This document shows, piece after piece, positions 17,730 through 57,262 of a stretch of DNA of 64,000 nucleotides. The stretch is from Escherichia phage UoN_LG358_1. The notes beneath the pieces were generated by a model. That model saw nothing but the letters and a program-made list of their open reading frames with translations, was not told where the DNA came from and did not search any database. Location of the stretch: the sequence record OK570374. One strand, given 5' to 3'. Every line of letters starts with the position of its first letter. The first letter of the stretch is position 1. Made by a program: the position numbers and the translations under genes.

Positions 17730-17820
17730 TATCCTTGCCTCATTTTACAATTAGGACAAATTCCACCTGCGAACAAAAGTCCGCTGCCGCAATATTTACA
17801 CTCCCAGTCGGTTAAAATTT

Positions 17821-18030
17821 TCATCTTAAGTTCCTAATACGTTCACGGATGATATTCAAAAACTGCCGTGTCATTTCGATGTTAGCTTCTCGCCATAAGA
17901 AGTTACTATTCATATCATTATATTCCGCGGTCACATTGTCGTTAAGCTCACATAATGCACACAATTTGCCGTGTTTTACTGCATCAGAAATTGCTTTATC
18001 AAACTCTTCTTTTGACATTGTAATTTGCAT
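17821..18030 (-). CDS. hypothetical protein (69 aa)
   Basis: ORF in operon orientation. Confidence 0.4.
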   Translation of the reverse strand: MQITMSKEEFDKAISDAVKHGKLCALCELNDNVTAEYNDMNSNFLWREANIEMTRQFLNIIRERIRNLR

Positions 18031-33075: not shown

Positions 33076-33125
33076 CTTATATCCTTTAGTATTTAATTTT
33101 TAAATCAGTAAAACAGTATAGAAGT

Positions 33126-53378: not shown

Positions 53379-53529
53379 AATAGTTATTTAAAGCCTCTAC
53401 TATATCTGCTATGATATCTTCAGAATCGCCAATAAGTTCTCGAAGAGATTTGTACTTATCTTCTGGACTTAGAGGATTTAAGCCCCAATATTTTATTAAA
53501 GCATTTTCAATATCAGAATATGAAATCAT
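53377..53529 (-). CDS. hypothetical small protein (about 50 aa)
   Basis: read from - strand (MISYSDIENALIKYWGL...); ATG overlaps gene 56 stop. Confidence 0.3.
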   Translation of the reverse strand: MISYSDIENALIKYWGLNPLSPEDKYKSLRELIGDSEDIIADIVEALNNY

Positions 53530-54047
53530 TAGTATCCTCGGTTTTGCCGCTCAAAGTTTTCAGCATTTTTCAGATAGTAAAGTTTAAAGATTTCTTCAGC
53601 CGACATGCCTAATCCTTGGAACATATTCAACACAAAGTGAAGAATATCAATCATTTCAAATTTAATTTCTAATTGGTCTTTTGAAGACATTTCAGAAATA
53701 AGACGATTGCGTAATTCTGCATGTTGTGCTTTCCATGGTTTCCAGACAGAAGAAGCAGCCTTCTCGCCATTAGACATACCGCCCAGAGAAGTCAACAGCT
53801 CACGGAATTCGTCATCGATATAATCTTTCTGATTACGTAGCCAATCAACAACTTCACCAGCTTTAGCTAAGTCATCTGGATTGCGGTTATAGTCAGGTTT
53901 ATCATTTGCTAGACGCACTTGCAATGATTTTTGCATGTCAAGCATCACTTGAAGCGGGTCAATACCAGCATTCACAGCATCATAATACGCATTTTCTGCT
54001 TTTTCATTGCCAGAGATGAGTTGAGAACATTCATTAAAATGGGCCAT
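53529..54047 (-). CDS. 56: dCTP pyrophosphatase gp56
   Basis: MAHFNEC...DPLQVMLDMQ...IDDEFRELLTSLG...DQLEIKFE...ILHFVLNMF.GLGM.AEEIFKLYYLKN.ENF.RQ.RGY matches recalled T4 gp56; start set at MAHFNE. Confidence 0.85.
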   Translation of the reverse strand: MAHFNECSQLISGNEKAENAYYDAVNAGIDPLQVMLDMQKSLQVRLANDKPDYNRNPDDLAKAGEVVDWLRNQKDYIDDEFRELLTSLGGMSNGEKAASSVWKPWKAQHAELRNRLISEMSSKDQLEIKFEMIDILHFVLNMFQGLGMSAEEIFKLYYLKNAENFERQNRGY

Positions 54048-54087
54048 TATATTTCCTGTCAAAGTATTAAATAGTTTAGGAGGATTT

Positions 54088-54297
54088 ATGTCTGAAAAAA
54101 TTAAAACCCCAGAAAATAAAAATCTGAAGTCTCAATTCGTTGAGAACAAAGGTAAATTAATCTTAGTTGGAGTTATTACAGCTGTAATAACAGCATGGAA
54201 CTATATTATCATCCCTTTCGCATTAGCATATGGGTTTACTTTACCTCCAATTCCATTGGATAAAGTTATTCATTTCATTATGCTCGGAGGATTTTAA
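54088..54297 (+). CDS. small membrane protein (69 aa) on the + strand
   Basis: strong SD AGGAGG 6 nt before ATG; two hydrophobic segments; no - strand ORF exists in this 230-nt interval. Confidence 0.35.
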   Translation: MSEKIKTPENKNLKSQFVENKGKLILVGVITAVITAWNYIIIPFALAYGFTLPPIPLDKVIHFIMLGGF

Positions 54298-55322
54298 ACT
54301 CCAATCTTTGAGTAATTCTTAAGGCGAAGTTGAGCCATCAAACCCGAAGATATATTTTCGGAAATATATTTTTCGATGTCTTCAACTTTCGCCCCTTCAT
54401 TTTTTATCATATCATTAATGTCTTTTTCTTTCCATTGAGATTTATCCCAAAACACAACTCTTTCGCCAGCGTCTATCAAACGCTTCATTCGCTTGATTGT
54501 GTCTTCTTTTCTTGGTTCATGGTCCATAATCCATACTCTATCTTCTTTAAATGGAACCAAATCCAAATCAATAGCGCCACCGGTGATGGCAATAGCATTG
54601 CCCAAGAACAATGAGTCTATCGGGCCTTCTAATACAAAAATATTTTGACCGGTCTTTGCTGTGTCTAATCCGTATATTTTTGTTGCATGTTCGTTTCGTT
54701 TAATTGTTATGTATTTTTGAGGGGCGTCTTTACGCAATGCTCTTCCTTGAAAACTTTCAATAATACCTTTCTCATTAAAGATTGGAATTACTAAACGAGG
54801 CTCATTACGTTCTGTTTTATAAGTTCCGGGATTAACGGAATTCACCAAAGCTGGCCATTCCATCGTAAAATACAAACGGTTCCAACGAGATTTTGGAATA
54901 CAACGATGTTTAACGTATTTTATAATAGGATGCTCTTCTGACAAACTATCTAAGCGGCTGCAATGAACTAATTTAATTCCTTCTGGTTCTTTAATTTCAA
55001 CTTTTTTCACCTCTGGTTTTGTATCAGGCTTAAAAGTCATTTTGTCCTTTCTGAGTTCTAAAATAAACTCACGGTATAAATCAGGTTCATATTCCTTTAA
55101 ATACACCCCAATTGGTTTTCCATAATCACAGTTATAACACTTCAAAAATACATCATCGCCCGTGCCATAAGCCCAAAAACGAGCTTTTAATGCGTCTTTC
55201 TGTGAGTCGCCACAGACTGGGCAGCGGCAGTTTAACTTGAATTGGGATACGTTGTTTACTTGACGAAAGCGAGGTAAGTGAGATAATGCACGAAATGCAT
55301 ACTCGTTATGGACCCATGACAT
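54294..55322 (-). CDS. 61: DNA primase gp61
   Basis: 342 aa; zinc ribbon CRCPVCGDS...CYNCDY; ...YLKEYEPDLYREFI matches recalled T4 gp61. Confidence 0.9.
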   Translation of the reverse strand: MSWVHNEYAFRALSHLPRFRQVNNVSQFKLNCRCPVCGDSQKDALKARFWAYGTGDDVFLKCYNCDYGKPIGVYLKEYEPDLYREFILELRKDKMTFKPDTKPEVKKVEIKEPEGIKLVHCSRLDSLSEEHPIIKYVKHRCIPKSRWNRLYFTMEWPALVNSVNPGTYKTERNEPRLVIPIFNEKGIIESFQGRALRKDAPQKYITIKRNEHATKIYGLDTAKTGQNIFVLEGPIDSLFLGNAIAITGGAIDLDLVPFKEDRVWIMDHEPRKEDTIKRMKRLIDAGERVVFWDKSQWKEKDINDMIKNEGAKVEDIEKYISENISSGLMAQLRLKNYSKIGV

Positions 55323-55954
55323 TATACTCTCCTAAAATCGTCTATAATTTTTTGATAACTAATATCCGGATATCCCAATTTAATTGCTAATTTTCTAAAT
55401 TTAACATATCCTATATTACCATTAGAGTTCCAAAGCTCTTTTAATTCATCGTAGTATTTCCATTGAGGGCCTCTTTTCATTTCTGAAATTATTTTAGAAA
55501 CATGTGGTCTACGTTTGCCATATGTTGCGCTTCCACTACCCTTTCTTTTTTCTGACCACATCTTTTTGGTTTCAATGGAATGTGTTTTTCCATAAAATGG
55601 GTTTCCTTTACCGGAGTAAAGACTAGATTGAGTTTTTGATAATTGAGTTCTAATCCAACTATATTCCTTATTGTTTCTGCTAGTATATTTTCCATTTATA
55701 GTTAATTGCTTAGCAGCGCATAATAACGAATAATATTGCTTTGTGTTCAATTTTTTATATATTTTTGATAACAATTGATGAACTACGAAATGTTCTGATG
55801 CTGTAAGCAAAACCAAATTATCATCACTATCTAGTCCTCCAATAGATTTTGGAATTATATGATGTTTTTCTGAATAAAAATTTAATTTAGATTTATCCAG
55901 TCCTCGTAATTTAGCTTTGTTGATAATAGAATCATGTATCTTTTGATAATTCAA
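55322..55954 (-). mobile_element. free-standing HNH homing endonuclease between genes 41 and 61
   Basis: 210 aa; HNH motif HHIIPKSIGGLDSDDNLVLLTASEHFVVH; start codon is TTG (AGGAGA-N5-TTG AAT TAT) where paralogues have ATG AAT TAT. Confidence 0.75.
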
Positions 55955-55993: not shown

Positions 55994-56464
55994 TTACAAT
56001 TTCTTAAGATTAACTTTAATGCGCTTACGTTTTGAGGGGATTTGTTCTGGACCCTTGTTGGTTATTGCTCCGGTTGTGGTACCAGAGGCGATATTCTGGA
56101 CACTTCCACCGGAATCACCGGCTACCATGTCCTCGAACATAGGGAGAGCATCAAATATCTCTTTCTGTTCGGATTCGGTTATATTGTATCTAGAAGCGAT
56201 TGAAGACCAAGCCGACATCATAGAAGCTATTCCATTTAAACCGGGAACAGTTGACATCATTCGCTTCATTGAACGAACCGCAGCATGAAACGGAGTATAC
56301 GCTGCCTTTTCTTCAGGGGTTGATGGTCGTTTAAGCACGCTGCCTTTTTCGTCAATGATTTTTGCTTCATATGCGTTCCATTCGGTGAATGGTTTTTGCA
56401 TTAGACGAATAAACTTATATGCATAAACGGCATCTATACCGTTTTTAATAGTGCTCATAAACAC
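55994..56464 (-). CDS. hypothetical protein (156 aa)
   Basis: ORF. Confidence 0.45.
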   Translation of the reverse strand: MFMSTIKNGIDAVYAYKFIRLMQKPFTEWNAYEAKIIDEKGSVLKRPSTPEEKAAYTPFHAAVRSMKRMMSTVPGLNGIASMMSAWSSIASRYNITESEQKEIFDALPMFEDMVAGDSGGSVQNIASGTTTGAITNKGPEQIPSKRKRIKVNLKKL

Positions 56465-56686: not shown

Positions 56687-56977
56687 TTAAAGTCCAATCC
56701 ATTCCAGCACTTCAGGAACTGATTTATTTTCACAATAAAGATTAGTGCCAGCAACTACCAAATCATTCTGGTCGACATCTTCAATGAGCATCTTTTGATT
56801 CGCATTAGCTCCAGCAAGAAGGTCTTTAATTAGCTTAGGTTTTACCGTATCCCAATCACCTTCGACAAATTTAAGGCATTGAATAGAATTATAATCAGCT
56901 ACTCCCGGAGTTGCATGGGCTGGAACTGCTGAACATGATGCTACTACCAATACGAGACTTGCAATTAACTTTTTCAT
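56687..56977 (-). CDS. secreted/periplasmic protein with signal peptide (about 96 aa)
   Basis: MKKLIASLVLVVASCSAVPAHA signal peptide; start set after promoter at 57006-57035. Confidence 0.45.
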   Translation of the reverse strand: MKKLIASLVLVVASCSAVPAHATPGVADYNSIQCLKFVEGDWDTVKPKLIKDLLAGANANQKMLIEDVDQNDLVVAGTNLYCENKSVPEVLEWIGL

Positions 56978-57037: not shown

Positions 57038-57262
57038 TCAACTCAAACTTTTCATTGCTTCTTCAAACGTTAATTTTTTAACTGAAAGATACCGCGCCGA
57101 GCTAATTTTCTTACCATTGCTAAGGACGACCAGTGTCCCGTAGTCCCATCCTGATAAATCTATTGAGTTCCATATATCAACACATACTTGTAGTGACTCA
57201 TCCGCTACTATGAACTTCTCGTGACCATCTCGGTCACGATTGGCAATTAAAACATAAATCAA
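57038..57262 (-). CDS. hypothetical protein (74 aa)
   Basis: ORF overlapping gene 41 stop. Confidence 0.4.
   Translation of the reverse strand: MIYVLIANRDRDGHEKFIVADESLQVCVDIWNSIDLSGWDYGTLVVLSNGKKISSARYLSVKKLTFEEAMKSLS

Follow-up and report, generated by a model that had tools for sequence, protein, structure and literature searches.

A conserved opposite-strand gene beside the primase gene of Escherichia phage UoN_LG358_1 encodes a small predicted membrane protein of the T4 Dam.1 family

The 64,000-nucleotide stretch of Escherichia phage UoN_LG358_1 analyzed here (OK570374; hereafter the window) carries a 69-aa open reading frame (ORF) on the plus strand, between two minus-strand replication-region genes. 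It is divergent from gene 56 and convergent with gene 61. The features of the locus are the following.

53529..54047, minus strand: gp56 dCTPase gene (tblastn, S16 annotation)
54065..54073, plus strand: 9-mer TATTAAATA containing ATTAAATA, a late-promoter-like octamer whose end lies 14 nt before the ATG (comparison of upstream regions)
54078..54083, plus strand: Shine-Dalgarno sequence AGGAGG (sequence)
54088..54297, plus strand: 69-aa ORF, including the TAA stop at 54295-54297 (ORF list; S16 gp16.1, T4 Dam.1 family, PHROG 2024)
54157..54225, plus strand: predicted transmembrane helix, codons 24-46, with invariant W37, N38, and P43 (hydropathy, flank charges, AlphaFold2, alignment)
54256..54291, plus strand: short C-terminal hydrophobic or amphipathic helix, codons 57-68, after a G49-x-x-L-P-P-x-P loop (AlphaFold2, hydropathy)
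54294..55322, minus strand: gp61 DNA primase gene (ORF list, tblastn, S16 annotation)

Flanking genes were identified by tblastn with T4 proteins: gp61 matches the primase gene at 62% identity (E 5e-143), and gp56 matches 54047..53532 (E 2e-75). The ORF list confirms the 69-aa frame given in the preliminary description, with an ATG start located only 40 nt from the divergent ATG of gene 56. AGGAGG is present as described, but its spacer to the ATG is 4 nt (ATTT) and not 6 nt. The TAA stop of the ORF and the primase stop (54294-54296, minus strand) share TTAA at 54294-54297, which is the overlap described earlier. The minus strand of the interval is stop-riddled, as had been claimed, with 4, 4, and 9 stops in its three frames across the ORF span and no listed ORF of at least 20 aa within 54063-54293. 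The plus-strand ORF is the sole ORF of at least 20 aa between genes 56 and 61. A promoter scan found a weak plus-strand sigma-70 site (9/12, TTGAGA-18-CATTAT, 54021-54050), which was rejected as a promoter for the ORF because shuffles score as well. A terminator-like hairpin at 54344-54361 was rejected because it is not conserved in relatives.

Over positions 53900-54500, identity to Salmonella phages S16 and STP4-a (Gelderlandvirus, Tevenvirinae) is 100%. The ORF product is 100% identical to an annotated hypothetical protein of both phages, named gp16.1 in S16, and all public sources label it "hypothetical" or "uncharacterized". It matches PHROG 2024 (function unknown) with an E value of 2.4e-24 over residues 9-68 and profile positions 3-64 of 65. 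The same profile matches ORFs of T4, VR26b, Q7622, and JD18 (E 1e-24 to 5e-31); the value for T4 dam.1 is 4.6e-31. Profile-profile alignment of the S16-type and T4-type groups using hhalign gave a probability of 98.3% (E 2e-14), and BLASTP aligned the window and T4 ORFs at E 2e-7 across a W-N-[FY]-I-x-x-P-x-A-x-A-[HY]-G core. Profile match, position, and protein features all agree with membership in the PHROG 2024/T4 Dam.1 family. Pfam returned no family for the ORF at E up to 10, holin families included, NCBIfam gave a chance match only, and a PDB sequence search found no relative. A word-indexed protein search recovered the ORF protein itself and its CkP1 homologue only, and Foldseek with the AlphaFold2 model against BFVD (viral models) recovered family members only. 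A HMMER search of 1.84 billion representatives yielded only three relatives, each of phage type, and two spurious matches to long proteins. Literature searches on dam.1 and on small or unannotated T4 ORFs returned nothing relevant.

T4 carries a homologous 66-aa ORF on the plus strand (NC_000866 17738-17938). AAGGAGG precedes it, and here too the ORF and gene 61 share 4 nt at their stops. Phage T4T annotates the counterpart as "dam.1" (ADJ39749.1). The preliminary description had considered an antisense gene at this position unusual; with a homologous ORF in the same place in T4, that view does not hold, and an opposite-strand ORF beside the primase gene is ordinary for T-even phages and not peculiar to this one. 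The feature is already catalogued, as S16 gp16.1, T4T dam.1, and PHROG 2024. The T4 56-61 interval contains dam and a 310-nt stretch that is unannotated in NC_000866.4 and AF158101.6. The dam.1 ORF at 17738-17938 falls within this stretch and is missing from both of these reference records. The NCBI protein collection has no accession for the exact T4 protein sequence, which fits this omission.

The preliminary description had also noted the absence of the T4 genes 61.1 to dmd from the 56-61 interval. In the T4 annotation, genes 61 and 41 bracket 61.1, 61.2, sp (61.3), 61.4, and dmd (61.5); the block lies upstream of 61 along transcription, not between 61 and 56. The "missing" block is a map-reading error, in which T4 genes were sought in the wrong interval. 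The gene that is lacking from the interval here relative to T4 is dam, and tblastn found no dam homologue in the window.

Past the primase gene, the window has the same layout as T4, ending with gene 41.

55994-56464, minus strand: 61.1-like gene, 156 aa (tblastn E 6e-16 to T4 gp61.1)
Between the 61.1-like gene and spackle: 65-aa ORF
56687-56977: spackle, sp (PHROG "spackle periplasmic", E 1e-31)
57038-57262, minus strand: 74-aa ORF at the dmd position, phrog_5421 (unknown function)

Only the C-terminal ~40 residues of the 61.1-like protein match the 54-aa T4 gp61.1 (phrog_1823). The rest of the 156-aa protein matches phrog_2086, so a longer protein appears to have been cut short in T4 gp61.1. 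Gene 61 and the 61.1-like gene are separated by an inserted gene for a 210-aa HNH-type homing endonuclease (55322-55954, minus strand; phrog_655, E 5e-52), the start of which overlaps the region of the primase start codon. Of 15 related records, STP4-a alone has this insertion; S16 and the others have a 38-nt gap. The 74-aa ORF at 57038-57262 is immediately downstream of gene 41 and overlaps the gene 41 stop by 4 nt.

The earlier statement that no dmd function is apparent agrees with the searches. T4 Dmd gave no tblastn match in the window at E up to 10. A Dmd profile HMM built from four genera had a best E value of 1.1 across the window and STP4-a 22-71 kb, together 113 of 160 kb and the whole early region, and an E value of 2.8e-37 for the T4 positive control; the extension beyond the window into STP4-a added no homologue. 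For the 74-aa ORF in the dmd position, comparison with Pfam Dmd (PF17587) and phrog_2102 gave no match, and Pfam as a whole gave none. This ORF was rejected on sequence as a diverged Dmd, given its assignment to phrog_5421, and could still be a functional analogue. Dmd is a counter-measure to the E. coli toxins RnlA and LsoA. That no Dmd is detectable in a Salmonella T-even phage would fit this role. The absence of dmd has nothing to do with the 56-61 interval.

By tblastn, 164 phage records contain the S16-type protein and 698 the T4-type protein, and in hundreds of genomes the ORF is labeled "hypothetical protein". Nine lineages from eight genera were inspected: S16/STP4-a and CGG4-1 (Gelderlandvirus), CkP1 (Karamvirus), Moon (Moonvirus), JD18 (Jiaodavirus), T4 (Tequatrovirus), WFL6982 (Mosigvirus), VR26 (Gaprivervirus), and Q7622 (Kanagawavirus). 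All nine carry the family gene directly beyond the 3′ end of gene 61, on its gene 56 side and encoded on the other strand. The family is absent from six more distant T4-like phages, namely Winklervirus Gravdalen, Muldoon, Acinetobacter AM101, Entb_46, Aeromonas AS4, and the RB49-like G5211, in which gene 56 or other ORFs come next after gene 61, on its own strand. Because it is present in eight genera and absent from these six phages, the family is an accessory gene of a subset of Tevenvirinae, located in a variable junction between core genes 56 and 61 and coded on the strand that no early or middle gene uses.

Subtypes of the family are exchanged in this slot. In the sister species CGG4-1, the slot is filled by a 74-aa family member of another subtype, which resembles Q7622 and VR26b; the gp56 and gp61 flanks of S16 and CGG4-1 are 75-98% identical, versus ~40-50% for the ORF cassette. 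VR26 carries two subtypes in tandem (L007 2495-2901), 8 nt apart. These paralogues are probably co-transcribed, since a late-promoter-like motif precedes the first only. RefSeq calls the 74-aa plus-strand family ORF of CGG4-1 (NC_031065 13466-13690; L016 867-1091) "dCTP pyrophosphatase", evidently a misannotation carried over from neighboring gene 56. The ORF and primase stops overlap by 4 nt in six lineages (S16, T4, Moon, CkP1, VR26, and WFL6982), overlap by 24 nt in Q7622, and are separated by 2 nt in CGG4-1 and 17 nt in JD18. Given this variation, the TTAA overlap as such is not under constraint. The 17-nt gap of JD18 (L003 3151-3167) contains a GC-rich hairpin, AGGGGCttcgGCCCCT, which may be a bidirectional transcript-end or stabilizing element; no hairpin of this type was found in the other lineages.

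A short, AT-rich frame on the "wrong" strand, unannotated in two T4 reference records, could be a chance or decaying ORF in the 56-61 spacer that gene finders call and the phage does not express. The comparative data effectively refute this reading, which is hardly credible. The frame is open in all nine lineages, and the other five frames hold 1-9 stops each. Nei-Gojobori dN/dS is well under 1, at 0.12 for S16 versus CkP1, 0.23 for S16 versus Moon, 0.28 for S16 versus JD18, and 0.14-0.35 among T4, VR26a, and WFL6982, with synonymous sites close to saturation in the family comparisons. Most differences fall at third codon positions (8, 8, and 31 at positions 1, 2, and 3 for S16 versus CkP1). 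W37, N38, P43, G49, and G67 are invariant in 12 aligned sequences, across subtypes. AGGAGG, GGAGG, or AAGGAG precedes the start in 9/9 lineages, an upstream motif is conserved as well, and the gene is duplicated and exchanged as a unit. The codon-level comparison shows that purifying selection (dN/dS 0.12-0.35) acts on the product of the ORF, a conserved protein of 63-75 aa. On this comparative evidence, the ORF is a real coding gene for a small predicted membrane protein of the T4 Dam.1/PHROG 2024 family.

Hydropathy upholds the membrane character proposed in the preliminary description as a prediction, with one membrane-spanning helix in place of two. Only one hydrophobic 19-mer exceeds 1.5; this segment, at ~24-46, is full-length and has a mean Kyte-Doolittle value of 2.28 over 19 residues. 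The C-terminal hydrophobic stretch of ~11 residues (mean 1.5 over 11 residues; C-terminus ...VIHFIMLGGF) is too short to span the membrane. An AlphaFold2 model (single-sequence prediction, pLDDT 72) has helices at 8-48 and 57-68 joined by a loop at 49-56. Lys and Arg number 4-6 in the N-terminal flank of the hydrophobic segment and 0-1 in the C-terminal flank. By the positive-inside rule, the K/R-rich flank predicts a cytoplasmic N-terminus and a periplasmic C-terminus, and thus a single-pass inner-membrane protein. In such a protein, the Lys/Arg-rich N-terminus would stay in the cytoplasm, the one transmembrane helix would carry the invariant Trp-Asn pair and Pro, and a Gly-x-x-L-P-P-x-P-L-(D/E) turn and short hydrophobic helix would lie on the periplasmic face.

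In T4, late promoters have TATAAATA from -13 to -6, the T at -13 being poorly conserved; there are 50 such sites, of which 32 are perfect, and some variants are tolerated (PMC2988020, PMC1524935). T4 early and middle transcripts all run counterclockwise, and late transcripts run in either direction (PMC2988020, PMC1524935). The interaction of gp55 with this element includes insertion of the -12 adenine into a deep pocket (PMC7892883). The adenines recognized specifically are those at -12, -9, and -8. Upstream of the family ORF, the octamers are as follows.

Q7622: TATAAATA
T4: GATAAATA
VR26: CATAAATA
WFL6982: AATAAATA
JD18: GATAAATA and CATAAATA
S16, Moon, CkP1, and CGG4-1: ATTAAATA, within TATTAAATA

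The 9-mer TATTAAATA is identical in S16, Moon, CkP1, and CGG4-1 despite diverged flanks; the other lineages have NATAAATA in place of ATTAAATA. T4, VR26, Q7622, WFL6982, and JD18 match 7-8 of the 8 late-promoter positions. ATTAAATA is a non-canonical variant of TATAAATA that deviates at -13 and -12 and matches from -11 to -6. Either NATAAATA or ATTAAATA occurs 12-33 nt before the ATG in 9/9 lineages, against a background of 0.7% of 45-nt windows at these loci. None of 20000 composition-matched shuffles gave the motif in all nine lineages, a figure that overstates independence, as ATTAAATA was added to the pattern after being seen and the nine regions are homologous.

Elsewhere in this phage, [T/A]ATAAATA precedes the soc, long-tail-fibre-like, 218-aa holin-sized, endolysin, and gp53 genes. 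ATAAATA is depleted about three-fold in the whole window (11 found, 31 ± 6 expected in shuffles), consistent with selection against stray late promoters. No canonical ATAAATA was found on the plus strand within 16 kb upstream of the ORF. ATTAAATA also occurs at 33090-33097 (minus strand), 14 nt before the start codon of the early gene asiA (33075-32803). Its spacing to the start is the same as at the Dam.1-family ORF, and it lies downstream of a good sigma-70 early promoter (TTTACA...TACTAT). The asiA copy may be a chance occurrence or a late-promoter variant driving late asiA transcription.

Late transcription of the ORF is inferred because only late T4-type transcripts run in its direction. 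In the proposed mechanism, gp55-RNA polymerase would transcribe the ORF late from the 8-bp TATAAATA-type element just upstream. A gp55/gp33/gp45-dependent start would be expected ~6 nt past the octamer. Such a start would give a leader of ~9 nt that begins inside the Shine-Dalgarno sequence, a weak point of the late reading. Late, gp55-dependent expression is quite probable for the family as a whole and has a little better than an even chance in this phage. Late timing is less secure here than in T4, Q7622, and VR26 because of the T at -12, the asiA octamer, and the lack of a canonical ATAAATA upstream.

The reading preferred here, and considered reasonably likely as a whole, is an accessory Dam.1-family gene in a variable slot that encodes a membrane protein, is expressed late, and has a conflict-type envelope role. 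The protein might act in the inner membrane by helix-helix contacts, either homotypic or with a membrane partner from phage or host, through the conserved polar transmembrane face (W-N, P) and the short periplasmic loop and helix. An envelope or conflict role is speculative and proposed by analogy; examples of such an accessory function would be control of lysis timing, keeping out other phages, or counteracting a membrane-bound host defense. The cassette-like replacement of subtypes between sister species would suggest a conflict-type rather than a housekeeping role. The genome already carries orthologues of imm, sp, and rI at other sites, which counts against such a role. A bolder version, in which the Dam.1 family is a late inner-membrane effector of phage-phage or phage-host conflict whose subtypes are exchanged and stacked as specificity alleles, is doubtful. 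Such an effector may exclude competing T-even phages or neutralize membrane-bound defense, its subtypes may be the S16, T4, and Q7622/CGG4-1 types, and it may have been overlooked because the T4 reference annotation omits the family.

The geometry of the locus also suits an antisense RNA. A late transcript from ~54079 would run without a terminator into gene 61 in antisense, the ORF being secondary, and its complementarity to the 61-56 read-through mRNA would aid late shut-off of primase and dCTPase. The ORF and gene 61 are convergent, with overlapping stops and no intergenic space in S16, T4, Moon, CkP1, VR26, and WFL6982, no conserved plus-strand terminator was found downstream, and T4 DNA is transcribed on both strands at different times at several sites (PMC2988020). 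This role is unlikely as the main explanation, given purifying selection at the amino acid level with saturated synonymous sites (dN/dS 0.12-0.35), a strong Shine-Dalgarno sequence in every lineage, and two subtypes that are unalignable as DNA yet keep the same protein motif. The GC-rich hairpin of JD18 between the ORF and gene 61 and the lack of an Rfam match also count against it. RNA and protein roles are not mutually exclusive; the RNA role fits the geometry and cannot explain protein-level selection.

A holin-like protein or lysis regulator, which would permeabilize the inner membrane or modulate the T holin late in infection, is likewise unlikely. The product is small, predicted to be membrane-embedded, and probably late, and the polar Asn in its transmembrane helix could drive oligomerization; in addition, UniProt labels a homologue from phage OE5505, a Foldseek match, "Holin" as a putative annotation. 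However, no Pfam holin family matches at E up to 10, and the C-terminus is hydrophobic, unlike the charged cytoplasmic tail typical of holins. The neighbors are primase and dCTPase, with endolysin ~46 kb away in STP4-a, and other loci hold a T-holin-sized late gene, an endolysin gene, and an rI-like "lysis inhibition" gene. RB49-like and other T4-like phages without the family also lyse normally.

As originally reported, the finding matters little, since it combines an annotated hypothetical gene with a map-reading error. The Dam.1 family is nevertheless a clean candidate for a late, opposite-strand membrane protein in the best-studied phage, and the exchange of subtypes between sister species gives a hint of a role in conflict. 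Omics studies relying on AF158101.6 or NC_000866.4 would miss a conserved, selected gene beside the primase gene.

Imm and the RI antiholin are small accessory T-even proteins that act on the envelope. By analogy, the window ORF product is proposed to belong with Imm, Spackle (PMC7650644), and RI in this class of small membrane- or periplasm-targeted accessory proteins. It differs in that their orthologues are separately present (sp at 56687-56977; imm and "lysis inhibition" in STP4-a) and their genes are on the early strand. T4 Dmd (gene 61.5) is a soluble early protein and the antitoxin of RnlA/LsoA (PMC3014915). It is like the window ORF in being a small phage ORF and nothing more; Dmd is encoded on the early strand between 61 and 41, whereas the window ORF product is predicted in the membrane, and the two have no sequence similarity. 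The closest counterpart is T4 Dam.1, which shares the PHROG and the hhalign support given above, the opposite-strand position directly after the 3′ end of gene 61, including the TTAA common to the two stops, and the size, basic N-terminus, W-N...P...G motif, and strong Shine-Dalgarno sequence. The two differ in that identity is only ~27%, the MSE... N-terminus and LPPxPL loop belong to the S16 type, and the upstream octamer is GATAAATA in T4 and ATTAAATA in this phage. In T4, dam shares the slot; in this phage, the ORF alone takes up the 56-61 interval.
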